A stretch of 64,000 bases of DNA from Minisyncoccota bacterium (GCA_041666545.1 JBAYGS010000003.1:41086-105085); one strand, 5' to 3'. Positions 4,401 to 57,182 are shown, counted from the first letter of the stretch. Numbers and translations: made by a program. The notes: a model not told the origin generated them from the sequence alone.

Positions 4401-4757
4401 ATGATTGATACAACAAAACTCAAAACCAAATTAGAAGCTGAGCTCGCCACCCTCGAGACCGAACTTAATGGCATTGGCCAAAAAAATCCCAATAACCCGG
4501 CCGATTGGCAAGCTACACCGGGAAACATCGACGCCGATAGCGCCGACCGCAATGAAGTTGCCGACACCATTGAAGAATTTGAAGACAACACCGCCATTCT
4601 CAAAGATTTGGAGATCCGTTACAACAATGTCAAAGACGCGCTCGCCAGGATTACCGCCGGCACTTACGGAACCTGTGAAGTCTGCAAAAAAGCCATCGAC
4701 CCTAAACGATTAGAGGCCAACCCTTCTGCCACCACCTGTATTGAACACACGAAATGA
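4401..4757 (+). CDS. DksA/TraR-family zinc-finger protein (C4-type)
   Basis: 118 aa. C-terminal CEVCKKAIDPKRLEANPSATTCIEH resembles the DksA/TraR zinc finger, with a coiled-coil N-terminus. Confidence 0.5.
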   Translation: MIDTTKLKTKLEAELATLETELNGIGQKNPNNPADWQATPGNIDADSADRNEVADTIEEFEDNTAILKDLEIRYNNVKDALARITAGTYGTCEVCKKAIDPKRLEANPSATTCIEHTK

Positions 4758-4761
4758 AACA

Positions 4762-4850
4762 CCAATAACCAAGAGACAATAACCAAAATTAAGTTGGTTG
4801 GAATTTGTTTGATTATTGTTTCTTGGATTTTGTTATTTGATTACTATGTC
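4762..4850. repeat. family-B palindromic unit overlapping the comM start region
   Basis: caataaccaagagacaataaccaaaa ... ttgattattgtttcttggattttgttatttg. Confidence 0.65.
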
Positions 4851-14770: not shown

Positions 14771-16507
14771 ATGACCAGACTCAAAAAATATCTGCCATAT
14801 ATCCTGATTGCCGTAATCCTTTGCGGTTTGGCCTTTTCACCTTTACTGATAAACACCGACCATGCTTTGGCGGCTACAGCCGGAGGTTCGTCTGACACCC
14901 CGGGTGGAGAGGGTGGACTAATCAGCACAGTGGCAAGCGGAGTCTTCGATAAATTTATGTCGTCGGTCACTTACATCATCCTCTGGCTAGTCGCGAGGAT
15001 TACTTGGGTCTCCGGCGCCCTGCTCGACCTTTCTGTCTACTACAGTTTGAACTTGGCCACCCTCTTGTCGAGAACTAATATTGTCACTATCGGCTGGACA
15101 ATTTTCCGCGACCTGGCCAATGTTTTCTTCATTTTCATCCTCCTTTATTACGGTATTAGAATGATTATCAGCTTGCCGGTTGATAAAAATTTAATCACGC
15201 GATTGATTGTGGTCGCCCTGCTTATCAACTTCAGCCTCTTTATCAGTCGGGTAGTGATTGACGCTTCAAATGTGGTGGCCTTACAATTTTATAAAGCCAT
15301 TCGGCCAAACTATACTACTGATATATCTAACCCAGATTTTTATTTGGACAACATCTCGAGCCAATTTATGTATGGCTTGCAACTTTCGAGCACCTACGAC
15401 CCGGGCTCTGGCGATAAAAGTGTCCTTCGAGATACAGCCGGTATTGCTTCGAAGAAAATTATCGTGATGATAATGGGCATAATCTTGCTCTTGGTGGCGG
15501 CTTTCGTCTTCGCGGCCGCCGCGATTCTCTTTACCGTGCGAACGGTAGTTTTGATACTCCTGATGATTCTTTCACCAATCGCTTTTATCGGCTCTCTCAT
15601 ACCCAAAACCCAAAGTTATTCTGAAGAATGGTGGACCCAACTTTTCAATCAGTCATTTTTTGCTCCGGCCTACTTGGTTATGACCTATGTCGTTTTGAAG
15701 GCTCTCGGAGGTATCCAAACGATGATTCCTGTACCGGCCGGTGCCTCTTTTACCGACGCTTTCGGAGGAATGGCTTTAACCAGTGTCTCGATAATTATGA
15801 ATTATGTAATTCTGATTATCCTGATGCTTTCTTCTTTGATTATTGCCAAGAGAATGGGCGCTCACGGGGCCGATATGGCACAGAAGGCGGCCGGCAAGAT
15901 GTCGTTTGGGATGGCGGGAGCCTTCGGCAGAACAACCTTCGGCAAAGTCGCTCAATCTTTTGGCGGCAGTAAATTTGCGCAGGGTATGGCTGCCAAATCT
16001 GGGGCCGTTGGCGCCGCCAGCAGGTTAGCACTCAAAGCCACGAATGCTGTCGGCCAGTCTAGCTTTGACCTCAGGGCAACAACGATGGCCGGTGGGGGTA
16101 TAAGCAGTCTTGTTGGCGATGTTGGAAAACCAAGAACAGCAAAAGAACTAGCAAAGGAGGCCGAGGAGGATCGTAAAGTTAAAGCTCAGGCACAGGTCAA
16201 AGCTGATAACGCCAGATTGGGCCAGTCAATTTCCAATCTCGCAACAACCAATCCTGCTGCTATCCCTGGAATTGTCAGTAATTTAGACAAGGACCAGTTT
16301 AAGTCTATTGATCCAAAGATTTTTGTTAACAACTCAACCGCTGCTCAGAGCCTGGAACCAGAACAGCTTAAAAATCTACAGAACAACCCCGACATTACTC
16401 AGGCTGACCGTCGCGCAATTAGACAACACATTTTGAACCTTGGTGCTGTAGGCACACCTACCCACACCTTCATGGATAGTGGCCCTGGTAGTGTTTTGTG
16501 GGCATAA
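14771..16507 (+). CDS. VirB6/TrbL-like polytopic membrane protein
   Basis: 578 aa. Signal peptide, 6 or more TM helices, and a hydrophilic Gly/Ala-rich C-terminal tail. This architecture is typical of VirB6/TrbL/ConG-type T4SS channel proteins. Assignment is by architecture and context only. Confidence 0.45.
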   Translation: MTRLKKYLPYILIAVILCGLAFSPLLINTDHALAATAGGSSDTPGGEGGLISTVASGVFDKFMSSVTYIILWLVARITWVSGALLDLSVYYSLNLATLLSRTNIVTIGWTIFRDLANVFFIFILLYYGIRMIISLPVDKNLITRLIVVALLINFSLFISRVVIDASNVVALQFYKAIRPNYTTDISNPDFYLDNISSQFMYGLQLSSTYDPGSGDKSVLRDTAGIASKKIIVMIMGIILLLVAAFVFAAAAILFTVRTVVLILLMILSPIAFIGSLIPKTQSYSEEWWTQLFNQSFFAPAYLVMTYVVLKALGGIQTMIPVPAGASFTDAFGGMALTSVSIIMNYVILIILMLSSLIIAKRMGAHGADMAQKAAGKMSFGMAGAFGRTTFGKVAQSFGGSKFAQGMAAKSGAVGAASRLALKATNAVGQSSFDLRATTMAGGGISSLVGDVGKPRTAKELAKEAEEDRKVKAQAQVKADNARLGQSISNLATTNPAAIPGIVSNLDKDQFKSIDPKIFVNNSTAAQSLEPEQLKNLQNNPDITQADRRAIRQHILNLGAVGTPTHTFMDSGPGSVLWA

Positions 16508-16517
16508 AACCTAAAAC

Positions 16518-17276
16518 ATGAGATACGACTCAACAAAACTAAACGAAATTTATAAAACCCTGCCAAAAGATGTTCAGGAAGCGATGTTTTCGGTTGACTC
16601 CGCCAACGCTGTTCAAAAAATCGGCAAAGATAACGGCTTGATGATTGATAAAATGGGTACCCTTGGTCAAATGGTTGGTCTGGTAATGCTCGGTGTCATT
16701 AAATCCGTGAGTTTCGCCAAAGAAATCGAACACGAACTCGGAGTCAACTCAACAACCGCTCAAAAGATTGTCGCTCAAGTAAACGAGCAAATCTTTTTGC
16801 CAATCCGAGAATCGCTCCGGAAAATTCAAGAAAAAGAAATCAAGCCGGAATGGGACAGTGAATCAACCACCACCTTAAACCACGAAGATGTGTTGAAGGG
16901 GATTGAGGAACCCGGAGCAGTCACCGCCGATAAGCAAACCTTACTTAGCGAAAGCAAACCGGCGACCGCACCGGCGCCAGTCAACTTGCCGACCGGACCG
17001 ATGGGGAATGCACCGGCAGAAATCAACGCTTGGCCAAAATCACCTGAAATAACGAAAGCCCCACTCGAAACATCGGCAAAACTAAAAGTGGAAAGCATGG
17101 GAGTAAATATCCTTGAGGATAAAATGAGTAAAGTTGTCCATATCGCTAAAGAAACTAAAATCATTGAGCCAGAACCTTCAAAATTGCCGCCAGTTGCTCC
17201 GAAACCACCAACTCCACCCTCAATGCTGAAGAAGCAATATGGGACAGTTGATCCGTATAGAGAACCGGTAAGCTAG
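16518..17276 (+). CDS. hypothetical protein with a Pro-rich C-terminus
   Basis: Complete ORF inside the cluster. No recognisable motifs. Confidence 0.35.
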   Translation: MRYDSTKLNEIYKTLPKDVQEAMFSVDSANAVQKIGKDNGLMIDKMGTLGQMVGLVMLGVIKSVSFAKEIEHELGVNSTTAQKIVAQVNEQIFLPIRESLRKIQEKEIKPEWDSESTTTLNHEDVLKGIEEPGAVTADKQTLLSESKPATAPAPVNLPTGPMGNAPAEINAWPKSPEITKAPLETSAKLKVESMGVNILEDKMSKVVHIAKETKIIEPEPSKLPPVAPKPPTPPSMLKKQYGTVDPYREPVS

Positions 17277-17306
17277 TTTGTAGTGAGTAGTGGGTAGTGA
17301 GTAGTT
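17277..17306. repeat. family-A repeat (gtagtgagtagtgggtagtgagtag), left inverted copy flanking the four-helix-bundle gene
   Basis: Its exact reverse complement (aactactcactacccactactcactac) occurs at 17664-17690. Confidence 0.8.
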
Positions 17307-17309
17307 AAA

Positions 17310-17666
17310 ATGCAAGTCAAAACTTACAAAGATCTGATTGTTTGGCAAAAGTCTATGGAGCTGGCCACTTTGATTTATAATTTAACCAAAGAGTTCCCAA
17401 GAGACGAGGTCTATGGCTTGTCTTCACAAATCAAACGGGCCGTAATTGCAATCCCATCGAATATCGCCGAAGGACAACGCAGGAAGGGGACGAAAGAATT
17501 TATTCAATTTCTACACATCTCTTATGGGTCTGGAGCAGAACTGGAAACTCAGCTGGAATTAGCCAAAAGACTATCTTTCGGTAATTTGAATAGCTATACT
17601 GTCATAGAAAACCTTTTAAACGAAATCATGCGAATGTTAAATAAGTTAATTTACTCACTTCACTAA
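17310..17666 (+). CDS. four-helix-bundle protein (23S rRNA intervening-sequence protein family; Avd-like fold)
   Basis: 118 aa. DLIVWQKSMELATLIYNLTKEFPRDEVYGLSSQIKRAVIAIPSNIAEGQRRKGTKEFIQFLHISYGSGAELETQLELAKRL matches the TIGR02436 / PF05635 signature closely. Confidence 0.8.
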   Translation: MQVKTYKDLIVWQKSMELATLIYNLTKEFPRDEVYGLSSQIKRAVIAIPSNIAEGQRRKGTKEFIQFLHISYGSGAELETQLELAKRLSFGNLNSYTVIENLLNEIMRMLNKLIYSLH

Positions 17667-17698
17667 CTACTCACTACCCACTACTCACTACCAACTCC
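17652..17698. repeat. family-A repeat, right inverted copy (overlaps the stop of the four-helix-bundle gene)
   Basis: ctcacttcactaactactcactacccactactcactaccaactcc. Confidence 0.8.
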
Positions 17699-17699
17699 T

Positions 17700-18137
17700 A
17701 TGCGTTTCCAAACACCGCAATTCATAGAAATCGAGGACAAAATTTTTGGGCCTCTCACCCTGAAACAGTTCATCTACCTTTTGGGTGGCGCTGGTTTGGC
17801 TTTCATTTTTTACCGATTCCTTAATATTTTTGTGGCCGTACCCCTAATCATTGCCTCCTTGGGCTTTGGTATCGCTTTGGCTTTTTATAAGATCAACAAC
17901 AGACCATTTGCCTATATTATTGAAGTCGCGGCCAAATATTTCCTACGCAACAAACTTTACATTTGGAAGAAAAAAGATAAACCGGTAGTCCAGAAGACGG
18001 AGAGCAGTGAAGAAGACCTGGTTTCCGGGCTTTATGTCCCCAAACTTTCTGACAGCAAATTAAAAGATCTGGCCTGGAGCCTGGACATCAAAAATGTTGA
18101 GAACCCTGGGACTTCCGAGACCATGCGAGGAAAATAA
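17700..18137 (+). CDS. small membrane protein with two TM helices (possible VirB3-like component)
   Basis: 145 aa. Two hydrophobic helices near the N-terminus, then a charged tail. Positioned upstream of the VirB4-like ATPase as VirB3-like proteins often are. Context only. Confidence 0.3.
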   Translation: MRFQTPQFIEIEDKIFGPLTLKQFIYLLGGAGLAFIFYRFLNIFVAVPLIIASLGFGIALAFYKINNRPFAYIIEVAAKYFLRNKLYIWKKKDKPVVQKTESSEEDLVSGLYVPKLSDSKLKDLAWSLDIKNVENPGTSETMRGK

Positions 18138-18249
18138 TGGACCTAATCGTCATAATATTTTTTTGATTTTCCTCTGTTTTGGGATTTATTTGGAGCTTGG
18201 TGTTTGTTATTTGGTGCTTCTTTATTGGGTTTTATGATAAAATGGCTTT

Positions 18250-18885
18250 ATGGCAAAAGCGAGCAGTTCAGAAACAACTCAAGGATTTGTTCCGATTAAG
18301 GAAGTCAGAGACGGCATCGCCGTTTTGAAAAATGGCGGTTTAAGAGCAATTCTTTTGGCTTCTTCTTTGAATTTTGCGTTGAAATCGGCCGATGAACAGC
18401 AAGCTATCATTTCTCAATTCCAAAACTTTTTGAATTCATTGGACTTCTCGGTACAAATTTTCATCCAATCACGCCGACTAGATATCAGGCCATATATTGC
18501 CCTACTCGAAAGCCGGTACAAAGAACAGCTTTCGGATTTAATGAAAATCCAGACCCGAGAATATATCGAGTTCATCAAGAATTTTACCGAAAACACCAGT
18601 ATTATGAGCAAAAGCTTTTTTGTAGTCATTCCTTACACCCCATCAGTTCTCGGTTCGGGTTCAAAGGGCCTCCTGGGCCGAAAAACCGAAAAGGTGACTC
18701 CGCAGACCTCGATGGAAAACTTCGAGGAAGACAGGAGCCAGCTCGACCAAAGAATTTCTGTCGTGGCCCAAGGGCTGACTCGATCCGGCATCAGAGTGGT
18801 ACAGCTTGGCACTGAGGAAGTTATCGAGCTTTTCTACAAAATTTTTAATCCGGGTGAGAGCGAAAAACCGATCCAAGTAAAATAG
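18250..18885 (+). CDS. hypothetical soluble protein, possibly a VirB4 N-terminal-domain-like fragment
   Basis: 211 aa. VPIKEVRDGIAVLKNGGLRAILLASSLNFALKSADEQQAIISQFQNFLNSLDFSVQIFIQSRR recalls the N-terminal region of Gram-positive VirB4/TrsE-type ATPases. Unverified. Confidence 0.3.
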   Translation: MAKASSSETTQGFVPIKEVRDGIAVLKNGGLRAILLASSLNFALKSADEQQAIISQFQNFLNSLDFSVQIFIQSRRLDIRPYIALLESRYKEQLSDLMKIQTREYIEFIKNFTENTSIMSKSFFVVIPYTPSVLGSGSKGLLGRKTEKVTPQTSMENFEEDRSQLDQRISVVAQGLTRSGIRVVQLGTEEVIELFYKIFNPGESEKPIQVK

Positions 18886-18902
18886 TGGCTATTTTACTTG
18901 GA

Positions 18903-18998
18903 ATCACCAAACACCAAGAAACAAATTCCAAGCAAACTCCAATAACAGAAACCTGAAAACTTTAGTTATTGTTTCTTGGTTATTGATTATCTACATCC
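18903..18998. repeat. family-B palindromic unit (ccaagaaacaa...ttattgtttcttggttattgattat)
   Basis: Reverse-complement arm and forward arm of the gttattgtttcttggttattg motif, upstream of the second four-helix-bundle gene. Confidence 0.7.
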
Positions 18999-19358
18999 AT
19001 GATTCATAAGTTTGATTTAGAAAAGCGAACGACAGATTTTGCAAAAGAAACCATCCTACTTTGCAGGAAATTACCTAAAGACCCGATAAACAACCGCCTA
19101 ATGGGACAAATTGTCGGTTCTTCCGGCTCTATTGGAGCTAATTACCGTGAAGCTAATGACTCACTGGGTAAGAGAGACTTTATCCACCGTTTGAAAATAT
19201 CCCGCAAGGAAATCAAGGAAACACTCCATTGGTTTGATTTGATTGAGACGGCCAATCCTAATTTCAAACCAGTGATACTGCCCCTCGCTAAGGAAGCGAC
19301 TGAACTGCGAAATATCTTTTCGGCGATTATTAAGAAATGCGAGGACAAGCAAGTATAG
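18999..19358 (+). CDS. four-helix-bundle protein (23S rRNA IVS protein family), second copy
   Basis: 119 aa. ...IVGSSGSIGANYREANDSLGKRDFIHRLKISRKEIKETLHWFDL matches the same family as 17310-17666 and is divergent from it. Confidence 0.75.
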   Translation: MIHKFDLEKRTTDFAKETILLCRKLPKDPINNRLMGQIVGSSGSIGANYREANDSLGKRDFIHRLKISRKEIKETLHWFDLIETANPNFKPVILPLAKEATELRNIFSAIIKKCEDKQV

Positions 19359-19373
19359 TATAATTGTATGACT

Positions 19374-19424
19374 GGTTATTGATGTTTGTTTGGTTATTGT
19401 TTCTTGGTTATTGATTATTTACAC
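19374..19424. repeat. family-B repeat, direct copy downstream of the second four-helix-bundle gene
   Basis: ggttattgatgtttgtttggttattgtttcttggttattgattatttacac. Direct repeat of 18964-18990. Confidence 0.7.
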
Positions 19425-19426
19425 CT

Positions 19427-21235
19427 ATGAGTTTCTTAAGTAACTTATTTACCAAAAAGAAAACGGTCTCAGGTATTTCTCCAATTTTGCCACAGGAAAT
19501 TTATCAATCCGGAGTTTTGGAGTTGCAAGATATTATCGCACCTTCCGCCCTCAAAATCAGTCCCAAGGAGCTTAATTTGGGCGAAAAGATTGTCCGGTCA
19601 TTTTTTGTGATTTCTTACCCTCGTTTCCTTTCGGAATCTTGGTTTGCGCCAATCATCAACCTCGACAAAGTTTTTAATGTCTCGATTTTTGTGCACCCAA
19701 TCGACACCGTCAAAGTTCTGCGCCAATTCCAGAAGAAAGTCGCCGAGGTGCAGAGCCAGATCAGCGCCAGGGAATCAAAAGGCTTGGTGAGAGACCCGAT
19801 GCTTGATACTGCTTATCACGATTTGGAACAACTACGCGATAGCCTGCAACAAGCCCAGGAAAAACTTTTTGATGTCGGCCTCTATATCACCATTTACGGC
19901 GATAACGACAATGAGTTGGACAAAATTGAATCAGAAATTAAATCAATTCTCGAGTCTAAACTTGTGTATGTAAAACCCGCCCTTTTCCAACAAGAGCAGG
20001 GCTATATCAGTTCGCTACCGATTGCCGACGACCAACTCCAGGTTCACTCAAAGCTCAATTCCACCCCTCTTTCCAGTCTTTTCCCGTTCGTGTCTTTCGA
20101 CCTAACTTCAGATAAAGGCATCCTTTACGGCGTTAATCGCCACAATTCCAGTCTGGTGCTTTTCGACCGCTTCTCGCTTGAAAACTACAATTCGATTACC
20201 TTCGCCAAATCTGGCGCCGGAAAATCGTACGCGACTAAACTGGAAATTTTGCGAACTCTGATGTTTGACGCCGATGTCATCGTAATTGACCCGGAAAAAG
20301 AGTACGAATACATGGCCGAGGCGACCGGTGGCAAATACTTCAATATTTCCTTAACTTCCGAACATCACATTAACCCCTTCGATTTACCGACGCCGAGCGA
20401 AGACGAGTCTCCGGCCGATGTTTTGCGTTCCAACATCATCAACCTGGTCGGCTTGTTTAGAATCATGATGGGTGGGCTTACCCCGGAAGAAGACGCGATT
20501 ATTGACCGGGCCATTACCGAAACCTACGCCCTGAAAGACATCTCGCCCGATTCCAACTTTGCCAATATTGAGCCACCGCTACTTTCAGATTTCGAATTGG
20601 TCTTGGCCGGCATGGAGGGCGGGGAATCGTTGGTACAAAGAATCACCAAATACACTAAAGGCACCTGGTCCGGTTTCCTCAATCGGCCGAGTAATGTGGA
20701 AATCGACAAAAAATTTGTTGTTTTCTCTTTGCGAGACATGGAGGAGGAGCTCAAACCAGTCGCGATGTACATCGTCACTCATTATATTTGGAATGCCATC
20801 AGAAAACACCTGAAGAAACGCCTACTGGTCATTGACGAGGCTTGGTGGATGATGAAATCCGATGATACCGCCTCGTTTCTTTTGAGCCTCGCCAAACGCG
20901 GACGAAAATATTATTTAGGCCTGGCCACAATCACCCAAGATGTTGATGACTTTTTGCGTTCGCCTTACGGTTTACCGATTGTCACCAACTCCTCAATTCA
21001 AATTTTACTCAAACAATCACCGGCCGTTATAGACCGACTGAAGGAAGTCTTTAACCTAACAGATGAGGAAAAATATTTACTTCTGGAATCTGATGTCGGG
21101 GAAGGGATTTTCTTCGTCGGCCTTAAACATGTTGCCATCAAAACTATCGCTTCATACACCGAGGACCAGATTATCACTTCGGACCCATCTCAAATTCTAG
21201 CTATCAAAAAGGCTCGCGCCGAGCTTAATTCTTAA
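19427..21235 (+). CDS. VirB4/TrsE-like conjugation-type ATPase (AAA-like, CagE/TrbE/VirB family)
   Basis: 602 aa. N-domain IVRSFFVISYPRFLSESWFAPIIN. Walker A FAKSGAGKSY. Walker B LLVIDEAWWMM (the DEAW motif typical of VirB4). C-terminal ATPase region. Confidence 0.75.
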   Translation: MSFLSNLFTKKKTVSGISPILPQEIYQSGVLELQDIIAPSALKISPKELNLGEKIVRSFFVISYPRFLSESWFAPIINLDKVFNVSIFVHPIDTVKVLRQFQKKVAEVQSQISARESKGLVRDPMLDTAYHDLEQLRDSLQQAQEKLFDVGLYITIYGDNDNELDKIESEIKSILESKLVYVKPALFQQEQGYISSLPIADDQLQVHSKLNSTPLSSLFPFVSFDLTSDKGILYGVNRHNSSLVLFDRFSLENYNSITFAKSGAGKSYATKLEILRTLMFDADVIVIDPEKEYEYMAEATGGKYFNISLTSEHHINPFDLPTPSEDESPADVLRSNIINLVGLFRIMMGGLTPEEDAIIDRAITETYALKDISPDSNFANIEPPLLSDFELVLAGMEGGESLVQRITKYTKGTWSGFLNRPSNVEIDKKFVVFSLRDMEEELKPVAMYIVTHYIWNAIRKHLKKRLLVIDEAWWMMKSDDTASFLLSLAKRGRKYYLGLATITQDVDDFLRSPYGLPIVTNSSIQILLKQSPAVIDRLKEVFNLTDEEKYLLLESDVGEGIFFVGLKHVAIKTIASYTEDQIITSDPSQILAIKKARAELNS

Positions 21236-21237
21236 AC

Positions 21238-22005
21238 ATGGCTGTTAAAGAGCGTATCGACAACACTACTGCCGGCTTGATGATTGCGGCCGCCTTTTTC
21301 CTCTTTGATTTAGTTGGCGGACTAGTAAATCTTATACCTTACGCAGGACAAGTTTTAAGCGATTTGGTCTCATTGACTGGCTTTTTAGTTATGGGCTTTT
21401 GGTTTATTTTAAAGGGAGTTAAGTTTTTGGACGGTGAAAATATCGGCAAAAAGGCCGGTACGCTGGCGTTTTCAATAATAATCGAGGCAGTCCCAATATT
21501 AAATGTTTTGCCGGCCCTGACATTTTTTGTAGTCAGGACAATTATCATGGTAAAATCAGAGGATAAGGTTAATGCCTTAAAGGAATCAACTGGTGCCGTG
21601 GGCAAGTTGGCGGAACGTGGCCACTCAAAGTCCAAAGGTAAATCCGAGAAGCCGGACGAAACACCGGCAGATGAGGACGGCGAAGAATCCGAGGAGTCTG
21701 GACCAGACTCTGGTCAAAGCGATACAGATGGGACATCAGCAACTCAAGAATATAATTCTGCTCCTATCGCCCATAAGGCATTTGGTGGCGTAGATACTGG
21801 ATCAATCAAAGACAGGAGCTTACGAGGGCCAGATTCAATCGATGACACCCCAGAAGAAAAATTGGCGGAACTGCAGTCTGGTCCTGGTGGACCAGATATA
21901 GTAGAAGCCGGCAACGAACGCCGGCGAGAAAAATTCAAAGAAATGATAAAAACAGGCGACGACCTACACCAAAACTCCTCTGGAGTTTTTCCGGACAGAA
22001 GATAA
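21238..22005 (+). CDS. membrane protein with an acidic C-terminal tail
   Basis: 255 aa. 3-4 TM helices, then a D/E/S-rich tail. Confidence 0.35.
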   Translation: MAVKERIDNTTAGLMIAAAFFLFDLVGGLVNLIPYAGQVLSDLVSLTGFLVMGFWFILKGVKFLDGENIGKKAGTLAFSIIIEAVPILNVLPALTFFVVRTIIMVKSEDKVNALKESTGAVGKLAERGHSKSKGKSEKPDETPADEDGEESEESGPDSGQSDTDGTSATQEYNSAPIAHKAFGGVDTGSIKDRSLRGPDSIDDTPEEKLAELQSGPGGPDIVEAGNERRREKFKEMIKTGDDLHQNSSGVFPDRR

Positions 22006-22064
22006 GGTAATTTGACTGAAACATTACGCAGTTTTGAAAACATAATGAGACTTTGATGATATAA

Positions 22065-23087
22065 TTGAAAGTGTTAATTATGAAAAAGCTAATCCTTGTT
22101 GCTCTCACGATGTTTCTGTTGGTGAATGGAGCTCTCTCCTCCGCCCAGACCATCGATTTGACCCAAAATCTCTCGGTCACTCAAAATCCAGAACGACCAA
22201 GAGCTTACGATACTGTTTCGATTTCAGTTGAAAGTTATTTGGTAGACTTAAATTCAGCTTCAATTACTTGGTCAGTAAACGGCAAGCTCTCGGAAAAGGG
22301 GACCGGCAACAAAACTTTCAAAATTAAACTCGGGGCGGTTGGCTCTTTAACCACGGTTGGCCTAAGCATCAAAGCCAGAACCGGCGAATCAATCGACAAA
22401 GTCTTTGCTTTACGCCCATCTGAAGTGGACCTTTTGTGGGAAGCCCAAACCTATACCCCGCCTTTTTATAAAGGCAAGGCCCTTTTCTCCAACCAGGGCC
22501 GTTTGAGGATTATTGCGGTGCCAAATTTTAAAGATTCGAGTGGCAAAACTATTTCAGCCGGCAATTTAATCTATACCTGGAAACAAGACGACCAGGTTTT
22601 GGGCAATCTTTCCGGTTATGGCAAATCCACTTTAATTGTTGACGGCCCGCTCTTGCCAATTCTAACCACCATAAGTGTCCAAGCGATGACCGCCGACAGT
22701 CAACTAGTCGCAGAAAGTCGTCTCTCATTAAGGTCTCTGACTCCTAGTATTTTATTTTATGAGAACAACCCGCTCTACGGCATTATGTATCATCAAGCCA
22801 TGGGCTCTGCCTTTACTTTACGCGGTTCAGAAATTACTTTAGCCGCTGAACCATATTTCTTCTCTGGTCACGAAAAAACGACTCTGGAAACCACCTACGA
22901 CTGGCAACTCAACGGTGTTATTGTAGGAGATAACGAGAACGGCGAGGTCACCTTAAGAAATGATAAGGCCCAAACTGGCCAGTCGATTTTGAGCCTGGAA
23001 ATAACCAACAGCCAAAAAATTTATCAATCGGCCCGACAAACCTTGACCTTGAATTTCTCTAGCGAAGGTGCTAACCCAACCTTCTAA
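22065..23087 (+). CDS. secreted hypothetical protein
   Basis: Signal peptide LILVALTMFLLVNGALSSAQT, then a beta-rich 300 aa domain. Confidence 0.35.
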   Translation: MKVLIMKKLILVALTMFLLVNGALSSAQTIDLTQNLSVTQNPERPRAYDTVSISVESYLVDLNSASITWSVNGKLSEKGTGNKTFKIKLGAVGSLTTVGLSIKARTGESIDKVFALRPSEVDLLWEAQTYTPPFYKGKALFSNQGRLRIIAVPNFKDSSGKTISAGNLIYTWKQDDQVLGNLSGYGKSTLIVDGPLLPILTTISVQAMTADSQLVAESRLSLRSLTPSILFYENNPLYGIMYHQAMGSAFTLRGSEITLAAEPYFFSGHEKTTLETTYDWQLNGVIVGDNENGEVTLRNDKAQTGQSILSLEITNSQKIYQSARQTLTLNFSSEGANPTF

Positions 23088-23917
23088 TGAAAAAAATGTC
23101 TAAAAATTTACGGCAGACTTTTTTAATAATTTATGTGGTTTTTCTTTTCAGTTCTTCAGTCATTACTGCTCAAGCCGCTGAACCTGTCAATTATATCCCT
23201 TTGGAGCCGTCTTTTTTAGGGCTTCCTACTGGCAGCACCGGTGGTATCACTTTTGGTGAATATCTCACTAGGTTTTTCTCCACTGTAATCGGTCTAGCGA
23301 TTATCTTGGCCGTCTTAATGATTGTTTGGGGCGGCTTTCAATATCTCTCAACCGACGCAATCACCGACAAACAAGAAGGGAAAGAGAAGTGGACTCAAGC
23401 GATTTATGGTCTAGTTTTGGTCCTAGCATCCTACCTCATCCTCCAGACAATCAACAAACAAATTATCACCATCCCTAATACTATTTTAAACCCTGGGAAC
23501 ATAACTTCTCATAGGGTGGAACCGATTGGTAGTGACGCAGCGATGAATGAAGCCGACCGCCTGGCCAACGCTCAAGCCAACCGACAAATCTCGGACATTA
23601 ACGCCAAAATTGAAGTAGCCCAAACTGAGGAAGAGGCAATTGATTTATTAAACCAAGCCGAGCAAGTTAAGCAGACCAGACTAGACGAACAAAAAACCGC
23701 CCATATCGCCGACACTCAAAGTTTTTTCGCGACTGAATTCCCAAAACTTCAGGAGAACTTTTCAAACGGACTTAAAAATCAGGTCGCAACTAACCGTGTG
23801 GCAATTCTGGAGAAACTCAAGGAGTTGACAACTTTTCTGGACAGAAACGGTTATGGAGCCGACGCGGACCGAATTCACCAGGAAACCGTCGCCAGACTTA
23901 ACCAATATCCAAACTAA
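23087..23917 (+). CDS. pilin-like protein with signal peptide and two TM helices (TrbC/VirB2-like architecture) plus a C-terminal coiled coil
   Basis: Signal peptide ending AQA, then two hydrophobic helices (VIGLAIILAVLMIVWGGFQYL; AIYGLVLVLASYLILQTI), as in VirB2/TrbC pilins. Assignment by architecture only. Confidence 0.3.
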   Translation: MKKMSKNLRQTFLIIYVVFLFSSSVITAQAAEPVNYIPLEPSFLGLPTGSTGGITFGEYLTRFFSTVIGLAIILAVLMIVWGGFQYLSTDAITDKQEGKEKWTQAIYGLVLVLASYLILQTINKQIITIPNTILNPGNITSHRVEPIGSDAAMNEADRLANAQANRQISDINAKIEVAQTEEEAIDLLNQAEQVKQTRLDEQKTAHIADTQSFFATEFPKLQENFSNGLKNQVATNRVAILEKLKELTTFLDRNGYGADADRIHQETVARLNQYPN

Positions 23918-34767: not shown

Positions 34768-35298
34768 TTACTCAGCGTTGGTAAAAATCTCTTGGACCTC
34801 ATCATTTTCCTCTAAAGCCTCAATCAAAGCCTCAAGCTTGGCGCCATCTTCCTCGGAAATCGGGGCCATGGTTTTCGGCATCCAGCCTTCGTGGGTTTTC
34901 TCGAAGGCCCAACTGGCGCTCCCGGGCGCGGCGAGGGCAGAACCGTGCTCCGAAAGAATAAATTTGATTTCCTGGGCGGCCTTATTGCGATTGTCGGTCA
35001 AAGCGTCAATGATGAGAGCTACTCCGCCTGGGCCATAGGCCTCATAGACAATTACCTCCATATTTTGCGAGCCGGCCTCGGTAGCCTTTTTCACGGCACG
35101 ATCAATGTTATCACTCGGCATGTTAGCGGCGCGAGCTTTTTCAATGATGCTCTTTAAGCCAGGCGAAGAAGTGTTGCCGTTAGCTTTTTTAGCTTCCAAA
35201 GTGATTAAACGGGAATATTTGGAAAAGATTTTGCTTTTCTTGGCATCCGAAACTGCCTTCTTATTTTTTACTTTTGACCATTTGTTGTGACCGGACAT
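34768..35298 (-). CDS. yebC: YebC/PmpR family DNA-binding regulator (short form)
   Basis: 176 aa. MSGHNKWSKVKNKKAVSDAKKSKIFSKYSRLITLEAKK is the canonical YebC N-terminus. Adjacent to ruvC as in many bacteria. Confidence 0.8.
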   Translation of the reverse strand: MSGHNKWSKVKNKKAVSDAKKSKIFSKYSRLITLEAKKANGNTSSPGLKSIIEKARAANMPSDNIDRAVKKATEAGSQNMEVIVYEAYGPGGVALIIDALTDNRNKAAQEIKFILSEHGSALAAPGSASWAFEKTHEGWMPKTMAPISEEDGAKLEALIEALEENDEVQEIFTNAE

Positions 35299-35508
35299 GG
35301 GAAGTGAGTAGTTAGTAGTGGGTAGTGAGTAGTAAAAGAAAGACCACTATACTTTATACCTAATATTTACCCCAGGCTACTTGACTAGTCGATTGGTTTA
35401 AGATATTACAGGAGTAGACAGAATTACAGCTCGAGCTGTTTTCGACTGTTCTTAACAAATAATCCTAAAGCATTTTAAAATGCTCCGGTAAATCAACGAG
35501 GAACCTGT

Positions 35509-44391: not shown

Positions 44392-46842
44392 GTGAATCCT
44401 AAATCTACCCCAAAAAGACTGGTTTTACTCGACGCTCACGCGATACTGCACCGCGCTTACCATGCCTTGCCGGAATTTTCTTCAAGCAAAGGGGAACCGA
44501 CCGGGGCACTTTACGGGCTTTCAGCGATGCTCATCAAGATTATTGCTGATTTGAAGCCCGACTATTTGATTGCCGCTTACGATTTACCCAAGCCGACCTA
44601 TCGCCACGAAGCTTTCAAAGACTACAAAGCCGGCCGAGCCAAGGCCGACCCGGAACTGGTGTCGCAAATGAGGCGCTCGCGTGACGTTTTCACCGCTTTT
44701 AATATTCCAATTTATGACAAGGAAGGTTTTGAAGCGGATGACATAATCGGCACAATTGTCGAAAAGCTAACAGCTAAAAGCCAAAAGCTAAAAGCTGATG
44801 TAGACATAGTGATTGCCTCGGGCGACATGGACACCTTGCAGTTGGTTTCGGACGACAAGGTTCGAGTTTATACTCTGAAAAAAGGTATTAAAGACACGAT
44901 TATCTATAACGAAAAAGGTGTTATTGAACGGTTTGGTTTTGGGCCGGAACTTTTGCCGGATTACAAAGGTTTGCGCGGGGACCCGTCGGATAATATTCCG
45001 GGGATAAAAGGAATTGGTGAGAAGACCGCCACGATTTTGATTACCAATTTCGGTTCGGTTGAACAGATTTATAAACAAATTAAAAAAGACGAAAAGCCAT
45101 TACTTAAGGCAGGGATTACGCCCCGAATTGTTGAGCTTCTGAAAACCAACGAAGAAGAGGCGCAATTTTCCAAAATGCTTGGCACAATTCGTAGAGACGC
45201 GCCGATTGACTTCAGATTGCCGGAGCAGACCTGGAAGGAAAGTTTGGACGTTACAAAAACCGAGGAATTGTTCAGCGAACTGGAATTTCGAGCGCTCGGG
45301 ACACGCTTTAAGGAAACTTTAAATAAAGAAGCGCCAAATTCAAAAACCCAGGTTCCAAATAAATCTCAAATCATAAAGTCAGAAAATTCAGAAACTACAC
45401 ACTACTCACTACCCACTACTCACTTACCATCCGACTTCTTCGAAACCTCGCTTGCCCTCTGGGTCGTCAATTCTAACCTGACCAATCCGACCATGGAGGA
45501 TGTTTTGAATTTTGGCCGGACGGATGATTATGAAAAAGCCAAGAAGTTGATTTTTGAAACACTCAGGCAAAGAAAAAGCGAGAGAGTGTATGAGGAAATC
45601 GAGAAACCTTTGATTCCTGTCGTAAAAGCGATGGATGAGCGGGGAGTGAAGATTGATACGGAACTTCTCAAGAAACTTTCGGTTGAATATCATAAGAAAC
45701 TGGATGGCTTGGAAAAAGAAATTCACCAATTGGCCGGTGAGGAATTTAATGTGGCTTCCCCGAAACAATTGGGAGAAATTTTGTTCGTTAAGATGGGCTT
45801 GGCTGGCAAAAGGCAAAAAAAGACTGCAACTGGGGCGTTTTCTACCAAGGAAAGCGAACTTGAAAAATTGCGAGAGTCGCATCCGATTATAAGTTTGATT
45901 TTGGAGTATCGCGAATTTGCCAAATTGCTTTCCACATATATCGACACGATTCCGACTCTGGTGGACAAGAATAACCGGCTACACACGCATTTTTTGCAAG
46001 CCGGCGCCGCGACTGGGCGAATGGCCTCGGAAAATCCGGGTTTGCAAAATATTCCCAACAAAACTGAATTGGGCCGAGCTATTAGACAAGCTTTCGTTGC
46101 CGAAAAAGGTTTTAAACTTTTGGCGCTCGATTATTCGCAGATTGAACTCCGGATTGCCGCGTTTTTGTCGGGCGATAAAAAGTTGATTGAGATTTTTAAG
46201 AACGGCGAAGATGTTCATACAGCGGTGGCGGCGGAAGTTTTCGGTGTGCCGGGCGACAAAGTCCACAAAGATATGCGTCGCAAAGCCAAAGTGATTAATT
46301 TCGGCGTGATGTACGGGATGGGGGTGAATGCGCTTCGGACTAATCTGGGCGCCGGCACAACTCGTGAGGAAGCGCAGAAATTTTACAACGACTATTTTGA
46401 AAAGTTTTCAGGTTTGGCCAAATATTTAGATAAGGTGAAAGCTGAAACCGCGAGACAAGGTTACACCGAAACTTTTTTTGGCCGAAGGCGATATTTTGAA
46501 GGAATTAATTCTAAATTACCGTTTATTCGTGCCGCTGCTGAACGAATGGCGATTAACGCGCCGATTCAAGGCACCGAGGCCGACATTGTGAAGCTCGCGA
46601 TGATTAAAATTTGCGAATACATCAAATCGGAAAAACTTGAGGAACAAGTTTTTCCGATTCTCCAAGTCCATGACGAATTGGTTTATGAAGTTCGCGAGGA
46701 TTTAATTTCCAAAATCGCTCCAGCTATCAAAAAAATTATGGAATCAGTTATTCCACCCGAAAAAGTTGCCGGCATCGTCTGTGTCGCCGAAGCGTCCGAG
46801 GGGGAGAGGTGGGGGGAGATGAAGAAGGTAGAAGGTATATAG
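44392..46842 (+). CDS. polA: DNA polymerase I (5'-3' exonuclease + polymerase domains)
   Basis: 816 aa. N-terminal 5'-3' exo (LVLLDAHAILHRAYHALP; GIGEKTA). C-terminal pol motifs (LALDYSQIELRIAA; YGMGVNAL; QVHDELVYEV). The linker carries in-frame repeat-derived insertions. Confidence 0.93.
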   Translation: MNPKSTPKRLVLLDAHAILHRAYHALPEFSSSKGEPTGALYGLSAMLIKIIADLKPDYLIAAYDLPKPTYRHEAFKDYKAGRAKADPELVSQMRRSRDVFTAFNIPIYDKEGFEADDIIGTIVEKLTAKSQKLKADVDIVIASGDMDTLQLVSDDKVRVYTLKKGIKDTIIYNEKGVIERFGFGPELLPDYKGLRGDPSDNIPGIKGIGEKTATILITNFGSVEQIYKQIKKDEKPLLKAGITPRIVELLKTNEEEAQFSKMLGTIRRDAPIDFRLPEQTWKESLDVTKTEELFSELEFRALGTRFKETLNKEAPNSKTQVPNKSQIIKSENSETTHYSLPTTHLPSDFFETSLALWVVNSNLTNPTMEDVLNFGRTDDYEKAKKLIFETLRQRKSERVYEEIEKPLIPVVKAMDERGVKIDTELLKKLSVEYHKKLDGLEKEIHQLAGEEFNVASPKQLGEILFVKMGLAGKRQKKTATGAFSTKESELEKLRESHPIISLILEYREFAKLLSTYIDTIPTLVDKNNRLHTHFLQAGAATGRMASENPGLQNIPNKTELGRAIRQAFVAEKGFKLLALDYSQIELRIAAFLSGDKKLIEIFKNGEDVHTAVAAEVFGVPGDKVHKDMRRKAKVINFGVMYGMGVNALRTNLGAGTTREEAQKFYNDYFEKFSGLAKYLDKVKAETARQGYTETFFGRRRYFEGINSKLPFIRAAAERMAINAPIQGTEADIVKLAMIKICEYIKSEKLEEQVFPILQVHDELVYEVREDLISKIAPAIKKIMESVIPPEKVAGIVCVAEASEGERWGEMKKVEGI
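45395..45428. repeat. family-A repeat inside the polA coding sequence, in frame
   Basis: actacacactactcactacccactactcacttacc encodes TTHYSLPTTHLP in the exo-pol linker. Confidence 0.75.
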
Positions 46843-51146: not shown

Positions 51147-51578
51147 CTAAAGCGGCAAATCAAAGGCGAGAAAACCCGGGCCGCTAACTAAAAGTGAAAG
51201 CAAGATTACGATGAGTAGTAAGTAAACCCGCTTATTGTAAACAATTGCACCGGCCCATCTCGGAGTTTTGGATTTCAATGCTTGAATTAGCAAAATCAAA
51301 ATCAAAACTAAGGCAACTGGTTGGGTGAATAATCCGATAACCAAAAAAATTCCGCCCAAAACCTCTAAGAGGGCAATTATTCTGGCCAGAATTGATTTTG
51401 GGGCCGAGAGACTCCTGTAAAGCTGGTAACCGGAATAAATAATAATCAAACCGGCCACGATCCGAAGAAGCGTCGGTCCGGCGAGTCCGTAGGTCAATAA
51501 ATTTGGAAAAATACTTAACATGGCATTATGATAGCATAATGAATAATCAATAACCAAGAAACAATAACCAAGAAACAA
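51147..51578 (-). CDS. DoxX family membrane protein (likely start at internal Met, MLSIFPN)
   Basis: 4 TM helices. LLRIVAGLIIIYSGYQL...GGIFLVIGLFTQ is DoxX-like. Confidence 0.55.
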   Translation of the reverse strand: MFLGYCFLVIDYSLCYHNAMLSIFPNLLTYGLAGPTLLRIVAGLIIIYSGYQLYRSLSAPKSILARIIALLEVLGGIFLVIGLFTQPVALVLILILLIQALKSKTPRWAGAIVYNKRVYLLLIVILLSLLVSGPGFLAFDLPL

Positions 51579-51655
51579 TAACCAAGGTAAGTAGACGCTA
51601 CCGAGTATTGTTAATCGGAATTTGTTCGGTTATTGTTTCTTGGTCATTGGTGATT
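51546..51655. repeat. family-B palindromic unit (3x caataaccaagaaa, then ttattgtttcttggtcattg)
   Basis: Long imperfect inverted repeat in the divergent intergenic region between the DoxX and SpoU genes. Confidence 0.7.
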
Positions 51656-52161
51656 GTGGAGTGATTTTATATTTAATTATGTCAAAACAAAAAAAAGAAG
51701 TTTGTCTCGTGCTAGACAATATCCGAAGTGTCTATAATGTTGGCGCGATTTTTCGGACTGCCGACGCTTTGGCTGTTGATAAAATCTATTTAGTCGGTGT
51801 GACACCTGCGCCGATTGATCGTTTTGGCCGATTTCGCAAAGATTTGGCTAAATCTGCTTTGGGTGCGGAGAAGAGTGTGGCTTGGGAATCGGTTTCGACC
51901 CTGACTGTTGTCTTAAAAAAACTAAAAAAAGCTGATTATCAATTGATTGCGGTCGAACAAGGCAACGGTTCAGTTGATTATAAAAAGGTAAAGATTAAAG
52001 CAAAAGTTGCTTTTGTCGTGGGTGAAGAAACCAAGGGAATCACTAAAAAATCTTTAGCTCTTTGCGATTTAGTAGCCGAAATCCCGATGCGTGGCCAAAA
52101 AGAGTCGCTCAATGTTTCCGTGGCGACCGGAGTGGCGCTTTTTAGAATTCTGAATCAGTAG
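51622..52161 (+). CDS. SpoU/TrmH family RNA 2'-O-methyltransferase
   Basis: DNIRSVYNVGAIFRTADALAVDKIYLVG and the C-terminal LNVSVATGVALF are SPOUT class motifs. Probable start at MSKQKK (51679). Confidence 0.8.
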   Translation: MFGYCFLVIGDCGVILYLIMSKQKKEVCLVLDNIRSVYNVGAIFRTADALAVDKIYLVGVTPAPIDRFGRFRKDLAKSALGAEKSVAWESVSTLTVVLKKLKKADYQLIAVEQGNGSVDYKKVKIKAKVAFVVGEETKGITKKSLALCDLVAEIPMRGQKESLNVSVATGVALFRILNQ

Positions 52162-56757: not shown

Positions 56758-56918
56758 GAAGTTAAGTATATAGTATAAGGTATATAGTATAAAGTATCAG
56801 ATAATTCCACAGGAATGGATAAATTTGCATTTTTTGAAAGTCTCTGTTAGTATTGCCCTTGTTCGTTTTTCTGATGTCTTTAACTACAAACTACTCACTA
56901 CCAACTACTAACTAACTT

Positions 56919-57182
56919 ATGCCTATCACATCTTCAGCCAAAAAAGCTCTCCGCGCTTCCAAGAGAAAGCGAGTTTTCAACTTACGACGACAAAAAGCTT
57001 CCGATGAGTTGGTAAAGCAGATTCGCAAACTGGTGGCCCAAAAGAAAGTCTCCGAAGCCAAGGCCTTGCTTCCTAAAGCCTATCAAGCTCTGGATAAATC
57101 GGCCAAGATGAAGACTATCAAGAAAAATACCGCTTCCAGAAAGAAATCTCGGTTGGCCAAGCTTCTCAAGAAGAACTCTTAG
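56919..57182 (+). CDS. rpsT: 30S ribosomal protein S20
   Basis: 87 aa. MPITSSAKKALRASKRKRVFNLRRQKA...KSRLAKLLKK is the canonical S20. Confidence 0.9.
   Translation: MPITSSAKKALRASKRKRVFNLRRQKASDELVKQIRKLVAQKKVSEAKALLPKAYQALDKSAKMKTIKKNTASRKKSRLAKLLKKNS

Follow-up and report, generated by a model that had tools for sequence, protein, structure and literature searches.

A 64,000-nt stretch of a Minisyncoccota bacterium contig (JBAYGS010000003.1, positions 41086-105085; hereafter the window) contains a small four-helix-bundle gene, open reading frame (ORF) 2, between a gene for a VirB4 N-terminal-domain-like protein (VirB4-N) and the gene for a VirB4 ATPase, with a direct repeat at either end. 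How did this gene come to stand there, and do the repeats belong to the gene, to the site or to the host operon? An earlier, sequence-only reading saw in the repeat the short target-site-like footprint of an insertion. Comparison with orthologous operons and with more distant relatives of ORF2 revealed that a cassette was inserted precisely at the stop-to-start junction of a split virB4 gene, and that the direct repeat consists of two copies of a right-arm array, partial before ORF2 and full after it, and not of target DNA. By analogy with the intervening sequences (IVSs) of 23S rRNA, ORF2 is probably the cargo of an IVS-like selfish hairpin cassette residing outside rRNA, between protein genes. 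The element combines insertion between stop and start with enclosing complementary arms of 7-nt periodicity, dispersed arms devoid of an ORF, co-orientation with its host, and a correspondence between arm type and protein subfamily.

Insertion at the junction of a split virB4 gene

We compared the locus with 80 orthologous 15-kb loci from as many genomes of different species, in which the VirB4 ATPase is 80-88% identical; junction gaps were counted in the 77 Paceibacteria loci that carry both the VirB4-N and the VirB4 gene. At most 30 nt separate the VirB4-N stop codon from the VirB4 ATG in 61 of these 77, as against 541 nt in the window (18886-19426, the extent of the ORF2 cassette). The typical empty junction reads TAA, 1-10 nt, ATG, without a Shine-Dalgarno (SD) site, and nothing resembling the direct-repeat sequence was present in any of the 61 empty junctions. 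Looking into orthologous loci, as the sequence-only reading had advised, thus upheld its claim of an insertion, the junction being empty in most relatives; its equation of the repeat with a target-site duplication fell, since the repeat belongs to a dispersed family. The features of the junction and of a sister cassette upstream are as follows.

17275-17696, plus strand: sister cassette of 422 nt, comprising a left arm of family A (17275-17307), ORF1 (17310-17666; PF05635) and a right arm of family A (17664-17696)
18250-18885, plus strand: VirB4-N gene, 211 aa, TraC-like (PF26593); upstream host gene of the junction
18872-18902, no strand assigned: perfect 14-bp palindrome: the final 14 nt of the upstream gene, stop codon included, then a 3-nt loop and the exact reverse complement
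18902-18946, plus strand: left arm of family B (CAA-type heptads), 45 nt, 78% complementary to 19375-19419 and paired with it in the minimum-free-energy (MFE) fold
18961-19002, plus strand: proximal right-arm copy (TTG-type heptads) with the leader and ATGA of ORF2; copy 1 of the direct repeat
18999-19358, plus strand: ORF2, a four-helix-bundle protein of 119 aa (PF05635/TIGR02436); cargo of the cassette
19375-19419, plus strand: distal right arm of family B, inverted partner of 18902-18946; lag-7 identity 0.62, P = 0.002
19389-19430, plus strand: 3′ part of the right arm with the leader and ATGA of the VirB4 ATPase gene; copy 2 of the direct repeat
19427-21235, plus strand: VirB4/TraG-type P-loop ATPase, 602 aa (PF19044, PF12846); downstream host gene

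Insertions of this kind recur in the operon. A hidden Markov model (HMM) of the family retrieved 16 four-helix-bundle genes from the 80 loci, all on the operon strand, and 13 of them by automatic assignment (14-15 by inspection) occupy the three junctions in the order 252-aa gene > PrgI > VirB4-N > VirB4. Against 849 gene junctions, the automatic count corresponds to P ~1e-6, which supports the operon as an insertion hotspot. The inserted genes differ in subfamily and in arms and therefore represent independent insertions, and most orthologous operons have no four-helix-bundle gene at all. Of the two options raised by the sequence-only reading, hotspot or co-option by the secretion locus, the former was thus borne out; co-option was not, as most orthologous operons do without the gene and only 3 of 80 metagenomic loci with ORF2 relatives contain genes of a type IV secretion system (T4SS). 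Nor do the window's two four-helix-bundle genes sit in consecutive gaps, as had been claimed: ORF1 lies in gap 1 and ORF2 in gap 3, with the PrgI and VirB4-N genes between them, and the middle gap (112 nt) is occupied by a solo arm of family-B type.

The same set of junctions also receives other DNA. In locus L036 (5718-6125), a gene of the TIGR04256 GxxExxY family (PD-(D/E)XK-like) sits within a heptad hairpin of an 'atacgaa' family, and two neighbouring junctions hold ORF-less hairpins of that family; in L071 (5349-5882), the junction set harbors a putative RelE-like/antitoxin-like pair. ORF-less heptad hairpins at these junctions were found in L012 (at two junctions), L028, L029, L030, L032, L036, L050, L077 and L080, and those of L028, L029, L032, L036, L050 and L080 share the arm family of the cassette resident at a neighbouring junction. 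In L076 (6566-6932), an ORF2-type gene looks degenerate, with a partial HMM match (86 aa, E = 1e-5) inside intact arms and behind an intact stop-codon palindrome.

Where such palindromes occur, they stand at the left edge of the insertion. The one at 18872-18902 folds with -17.3 kcal/mol (z -5.6), and in five of the seven expanded VirB4-N > VirB4 junctions (at least 150 nt; window included), a stop-spanning coding end of 10-26 nt is followed by its exact reverse complement, giving stems of 14 bp in the window, 10 bp in L024, 18 bp in L028, 24 bp in L032 and 21 bp in L076. Among 169 short gaps, just two have a perfect stem of at least 10 bp. Because the coding sequence of the left half (...EKPIxxx*) is the ancestral one, it is the right half that was copied, with the target as its template. 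The palindrome points either to a fold-back step during insertion or repair, or to a hairpin under selection at the 3′ end that the upstream message acquired; no such palindrome is seen at the downstream ATG. A comparable palindrome is seen at the stop codon of the 252-aa gene in L068. Two further interpretations were discarded: as a general trait of the cassettes, since it was found in 3 of 57 metagenomic cases and 3 of 230 controls, and as an intrinsic terminator, since the plus strand has no T-run and a simple terminator pattern matched on the minus strand alone.

As to the host, the window is part of a 178.5-kb metagenome contig of a Paceibacteria-like bacterium of the candidate phyla radiation (CPR). 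Positions 14771-23917 form a Gram-positive-type, T4SS-like operon near rnpA, yidC and dnaA, in the order TrbL/VirB6-like gene, 252-aa gene, ORF1, PrgI, VirB4-N (211 aa), ORF2, VirB4 ATPase, with further operon genes downstream, including a T4SS pilin. Profile matches agree with the neighbours that the sequence-only reading had assigned to ORF2, a VirB4-N-like ORF and a VirB4-like ATPase: residues 4-127 of VirB4-N align to positions 98-233 of 894 in the NCBIfam VirB4 models, and its C-terminus (...EKPIQVK*) is homologous to those of the relatives. A second ORF2-bearing contig (L082) is 100% identical to the window across 3.5 kb.

Heptad arms and the genes that they enclose

The direct repeat flanking ORF2 is real and longer than the sequence-only reading had it, although the coordinates given there were right to within 1-2 nt. 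Alignment of the two flanks fixed its length at 42 nt (18961-19002 and 19389-19430; 38 of 42 identical), with an exact core of 26 nt (18965-18990 = 19393-19418), and each copy reaches into the ATG(A) of the gene behind it, ORF2 in one case and the VirB4 ATPase gene in the other. What had been overlooked are the inverted repeats enclosing both four-helix-bundle genes. In the MFE fold of 18860-19440, the 45-nt arms pair and the resulting hairpin closes the whole of ORF2 (z -4.8), so that the direct repeat doubles as the right arm of the inverted repeat 18902-18946 / 19375-19419. The arms of ORF1 measure 33 nt and are 97% complementary, and their ~28-bp stem is kept in the centroid fold (z -3.6).

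All of these arms are built from degenerate 7-nt units, of the types TAGTGAG/TAGTGGG in family A and TTGGTTA/TTGTTTC in family B, the left arm of ORF2 following the formula (NNNNCAA)n and its right arm the formula (TTGNNNN)n. Among lags of 4-10 nt, lag 7 gave the highest self-identity in 10 of 10 arms tested (P <0.0005 to 0.07 against shuffles), reaching 0.70 in the arm at 18961-19002 (P = 0.003 against shuffles) and 0.81 in the ORF1 cassette arms. Within the left arm of ORF1 (17281-17304), TAG recurs every 7 nt, at 17281, 17288, 17295 and 17302, and a spacing of 7 nt therefore places stop codons in all three frames just before the gene; TAG-phased heptads are likewise seen in other subfamily-1 cassettes (L033, L067, L080).

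We next turn to relatives outside the operon. With the 95th percentile of 838 control ORFs as threshold, flank complementarity was elevated in 13 of 18 four-helix-bundle genes of the window and related loci (arm lag-7 identity 0.6-0.9). A metagenome scan with the ORF2 subfamily gave 80 loci at 39-70% protein identity; among those with usable flanks, 57 of 71 reached the threshold. Their arms fill gaps of 30-100 nt on each side and have the family-B form, with (NNNNCAA)n to the left of the gene and (TTGNNNN)n to its right, so that CAA/TTG heptads accompany the ORF2 clade over that whole span of identity. At least four in-phase TTG heptads follow the stop codon in 41 of 72 cassettes, compared with 11 of 232 control windows. 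One relative with 67% protein identity (L085) retains tttgtttggttattgtttcttg nearly unaltered in a different context, and the arm type therefore tracks the protein subfamily. The gene is oriented with both of its neighbours in 35 of these loci and opposed to them in 4. An inverted arrangement of the arms is usual: among 87 cassettes scored, only a handful had strong direct flanks like those of the window.

Annotated plasmid examples from cultured organisms (13, from Cyanobacteria, Bacteroidota and one Alphaproteobacterium) extend the association. Heptamer repeats occur on both flanks in 10 of the 13, inverted in nine, as in Nostoc edaphicum, (TAGGGAG)n / (CTCCCTA)n, Nostoc C052, (GGGAACA)n / (TGTTCCC)n, Anabaena 90, (GGTGACA)n, and further in Geminocystis, Riemerella and Azospirillum. 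The one direct case is a Pseudanabaena gene within (AAAAGCT)n / (AAAAGCC)n arrays. Two copies in Nostoc PCC 7120 have repeats on one side only, beside a transposase, and one Calothrix plasmid case has no heptamer repeats. The contexts are operon junctions, namely cas6>cas4, cas10/cmr2>cmr3 and the gap between ribonucleotide reductase genes, and one Nostoc plasmid example adjoins a gene with a TraM-recognition domain. The cas and ribonucleotide reductase cases are those of Anabaena sp. 90 (L175), Pseudanabaena (L176), Picosynechococcus (L180) and Nostoc edaphicum (L172). Viral contigs yielded only six distant relatives, and carriage by phages was set aside.

Back in the window, arms of both families also occur away from any four-helix-bundle gene. 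With up to three mismatches, the 24-mer core of the direct repeat was found six times, compared with none in 100 dinucleotide shuffles; it stands exactly at 51545-51568, ~32 kb off, and in diverged form at 4760-4783 and 51629-51652. Three family-B or family-B-like elements are placed as follows.

4755-4846, plus strand: ORF-less family-B hairpin in a stop-to-start junction (fold z -2.8)
18179-18220, plus strand: solo arm of TTG heptads, family-B-like, in the gap between PrgI and VirB4-N; 71% complementary to 18901-18942
51541-51660, no strand assigned: ORF-less family-B hairpin in a divergent intergenic region, containing the exact 24-mer core (fold z -5.5)

The sequence-only reading had proposed to look for small ORFs in other family-B units, and named simple palindromic intergenic units, with no association to inserted ORFs, as what would speak against it. 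The units at 4755-4846 and 51541-51660 are palindromic and ORF-less, and therefore just what it had named. The gap between PrgI and VirB4-N (18138-18249) amounts to 112 nt, compared with at most 20 nt in most relatives, and is largely solo arm, so that heptad-repeat DNA is present at all three operon junctions. Solo copies of family A are located at 35308, 45395 (in frame within polA) and 56891 (immediately before an ATG). The last of these, an arm at 56885-56915, abuts the ATG at 56920 of a putative ribosomal protein S20-like gene, and the arm at 35300-35335 adjoins the start of a minus-strand gene (34768-35298). Within polA (44392-46842), heptad repeats run in frame at 44765-44796 and 45392-45424, in an apparent inter-domain linker; one belongs to family A, the other to a third family (agctaaa/agccaaa).

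That ORF2 is a four-helix-bundle gene, as the sequence-only reading had it, was confirmed by profile scores above the cut-offs of PF05635 (51.3 bits; cut-off 33.8) and TIGR02436 (71.3 bits; cut-off 24), a model named 'four helix bundle protein'; PF05635 is the sole Pfam match of the enclosed ORF. ORF1 is the stronger family member, with 132.9 and 124.4 bits, respectively. ORF2 matches PDB entry 2RLD (E = 1.2e-9), and the family profile matches both 2RLD and 2GSC, the latter being XCC0516 of Xanthomonas campestris ATCC 33913, each with five chains, supporting a predicted four-helix-bundle fold and homopentameric assembly by homology. The two window proteins share the Pfam and TIGR families, so that calling ORF2 a divergent paralog of ORF1 stands at family level; recent paralogy does not, as BLASTP returned no alignment between the two. 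With ~20% identity in the family alignment, they classify as family-level homologues of two different subfamilies. Relatives align with ORF2 from residue 1; its N-terminus is thus native, and the ATG within the repeat was not borrowed from virB4.

Known systems and competing explanations

PF05635 is a large orphan family, known chiefly for ORFs in rRNA intervening sequences and as a homologue of Avd, a protein of diversity-generating retroelements (DGRs). The Coxiella IVS is 428-444 nt long, with a 28-bp terminal stem that RNase III cuts at its middle and an S23p ORF (PMC4990558); 23S rRNA IVSs are regarded as selfish and horizontally spread (PMC4990558), and 23S_rRNA_IVP ORFs have been reported within CPR rRNA insertions (PMC11270868). 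Like the IVSs of Coxiella burnetii and Leptospira, the cassettes described here place a PF05635 ORF within complementary ends, with a stem of ~28 bp and a length of ~420-540 nt, the ORF1 cassette (422 nt, ~28-bp stem) resembling the Coxiella IVS in its dimensions. A long terminal stem surrounds both ORF2 (45 nt, 78%) and ORF1 (33 nt, 97%). In contrast to IVSs, they occupy the stop-start junction of protein genes instead of an rRNA helix (there are no rRNA genes in the window), their arms are 7-nt periodic with ORF-less copies dispersed, and excision by RNase III would be theirs by analogy.

Repetitive extragenic palindromic (REP) elements, with their paired form REPIN and the REP-associated tyrosine transposases (RAYTs), provide a second parallel: dispersed palindromic intergenic repeats, a single gene between inverted copies, and a repeat family specific to the gene subfamily. 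Same-family repeats are indeed scattered over the window (family B at 4755-4846, 51541-51660 and 18179-18220; family A at 35308, 45395 and 56891). RAYTs are HUH/Y1 (IS200/IS605-like) transposases, whereas the gene here encodes a 119-aa PF05635 four-helix bundle without known catalytic activity, and the repeats are heptad arrays instead of G+C-rich REP stems. With miniature inverted-repeat transposable elements and small insertion sequences, the cassettes share inverted terminal sequences, short ORF-less derivatives and intergenic sites; they differ in that we detected no transposase and no target-site duplication, and in arm ends that are fuzzy tandem arrays where those elements have defined terminal inverted repeats. 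Intergenic heptamers have their own history, which includes the short tandemly repeated repetitive (STRR) heptamers of cyanobacteria. Published examples comprise GGGAATC in Xanthomonas, with 70-75 pairs in convergent orientation, GGGGA(T/C)T in Nostoc (PMC4692102), and TAACTGA, known from Beggiatoaceae, Cyanobacteria and Bacteroidetes ahead of start codons that lack an SD (PMC4679880); these papers associate the repeats with no gene, mechanism or mobile element (PMC4692102, PMC4679880). Our arms agree with them in consisting of intergenic 7-nt units that often end just before SD-less starts and often form convergent pairs; they differ in bracketing a four-helix-bundle gene, here and on plasmids of Nostoc, Anabaena, Geminocystis, Riemerella and Azospirillum, and, in the window, in being degenerate instead of perfect.

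Drawing on the match in anatomy with the Coxiella IVS and on the PF05635 ORFs reported in CPR rRNA insertions, we propose that the cassette, having no evident promoter, would be carried on the operon transcript; its arms would pair as a stem of ~40 bp, bringing the upstream stop and the downstream start together, and RNase III, as in rRNA IVSs, might then cut the stem. Such cutting would free the mRNA of the small gene and leave the downstream ATPase gene with a short leader, which would suit a genome that has few SD sites and otherwise relies on tight stop-start coupling. We infer RNase III processing from the IVS analogy, and likewise infer mobility of the cassette. Rather than transposing, the gene may move among sites by way of the arms that these have in common, through recombination or gene conversion, and spread by such recombination is plausible because exact 24-26-nt copies stand at several sites. 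Finally, a pentameric, Avd-like protein could bind its own heptad arms. Over the window as a whole, an SD-like motif was found for only 7 of the 62 genes called, and TATAAT-like sequences lie ~7-12 nt before many start codons, which together suggests that mRNAs without a leader or with a very short one are frequent. A perfect TATAAT also occurs at 19359-19364, directly after the ORF2 stop codon and 63 nt before the virB4 ATG, and a promoter scan marked a promoter-like site at 19330-19359. The ORF2 cassette may hold an outward promoter for virB4 downstream.

Several observations weigh against reading ORF2 as the cargo of a selfish, IVS-like cassette. The 64-kb window, which is a part of the genome, yielded no RNase III signature, and no mobility enzyme was identified. 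The GxxExxY gene of L036 is a different cargo in the same kind of hairpin, and therefore weakens the idea that the four-helix protein recognises the arms. The layout around ORF2 is atypical, with the left arm and then a partial right arm before the gene and a full right arm after it; in its close relatives, the CAA-type left arm sits immediately before the ATG. This layout is best read as the outcome of one of two events: either the right arm was duplicated together with the leader, or the gene landed beside a pre-existing hairpin. Arm mismatches, moreover, comprise 78 of the G·U type and 75 of the A·C type, leaving no signal of selection on the RNA strand; selection on stems at the RNA level was set aside on this count. 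Because both mismatch types are equally frequent, arm complementarity may be kept at the DNA level or be a mere by-product of how the arms form.

The most serious competitor takes the array itself as the target: the gene would have entered a pre-existing family-B hairpin before virB4 by homing or gene conversion, splitting or duplicating its right-arm array, in which case the direct repeat would be a duplicated target after all, the target being a repeat element. ORF-less hairpins at the same junctions elsewhere (L012 at two junctions, L028, L029, L030, L036, L077) accord with this, and the Pseudanabaena gene inside direct arrays, the second cargo type in L036, and the greater similarity of the direct copies (38/42) than of the inverted arms (78%) fit it as well. 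However, the arms change in sequence along with the protein subfamily, across large distances and between unrelated contexts, which fits travelling arms at least equally, and the ORF2 N-terminus is native, its ATG not coming from virB4. We also know of no nuclease or recombinase in PF05635. On balance, we regard such an origin as possible but doubtful. Classical transposition, in which a mobile element duplicated 25-42 nt of host target DNA, would account for a single small gene bracketed by a direct repeat at a site that is empty in most relatives. It founders on the nature of the repeat, whose family is dispersed and counts palindromic ORF-less copies and an exact 24-mer 32 kb off, as well as on empty junctions without such sequence and flanks that in relatives are normally inverted, not direct; the called genes of the locus include no transposase, and target duplications are usually far shorter than 42 nt. 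We consider it highly improbable, and target-site duplication was rejected on the dispersed exact and diverged 24-mers, the ORF-less hairpins, the empty junctions and the inverted flanks of relatives.

A role for the host is very unlikely too. The repeats could in principle serve the secretion operon as regulatory sites, with the four-helix proteins as accessory factors that it recruited, given that insertions recur in this operon, that the right arm supplies ORF2 and virB4 with near-identical leaders, and that one Nostoc plasmid example lies beside a TraM-recognition-domain gene. Yet the gene is missing from most orthologous operons, the genes inserted belong to different subfamilies, relatives of ORF2 occupy unrelated contexts (cas6/cas4, cas10/cmr3, between ribonucleotide reductase genes), and elsewhere the same junctions hold a toxin-antitoxin-like pair and a GxxExxY gene. 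Least credible, with hardly any weight left to it, is descent from a DGR in which the gene would have supplied the Avd accessory protein. Avd is a homologue of PF05635 (PMC10053308), the two sharing the four-helix-bundle fold whose solved relatives 2GSC and 2RLD have five chains each, and ORF1 weakly hits bAvd (27.6 bits) and DivGenRetAVD (34.3 bits). Both scores fall below the curated cut-offs (40 and 80), ORF2 gave no match to Avd models, the genes called in the 6 kb to the left and to the right include no reverse transcriptase, and template/variable repeats are lacking nearby, so that the DGR assignment was discarded.

A possible two-part system of protein and repeat

The locus and its relatives physically join the orphan PF05635 family with heptameric intergenic repeats. 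The gene typically lies within inverted heptad arrays whose motif tracks the protein subfamily, with ORF-less members of that array family nearby. The package lands precisely where one operon gene stops and the next starts, T4SS, CRISPR-cas and ribonucleotide reductase loci being among its sites. In the searchable literature, which leaves most subscription journals outside and so allows for an earlier mention, we came upon no account of heptad arrays that bracket a four-helix-bundle gene.

As a tentative extension, which we think unlikely to hold in full, PF05635/TIGR02436 proteins and heptamer arrays might form one widespread two-part system that spans CPR, Cyanobacteria, Bacteroidota and Proteobacteria and parallels the pairing of RAYT with REP, in which the pentamer would recognise ~4-6 of its own subfamily's 7-nt units and promote the maintenance or spread of the array, the gene or both. 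If true, such a system would explain the function of the orphan S23p/IVS proteins, the origin of rRNA IVSs, and the excess of intergenic heptamers (STRR, GGGAATC, TAACTGA). For the annotation of streamlined CPR genomes, these cassettes split operons and are to be treated as insertions, not as members of the operons in which they lie.

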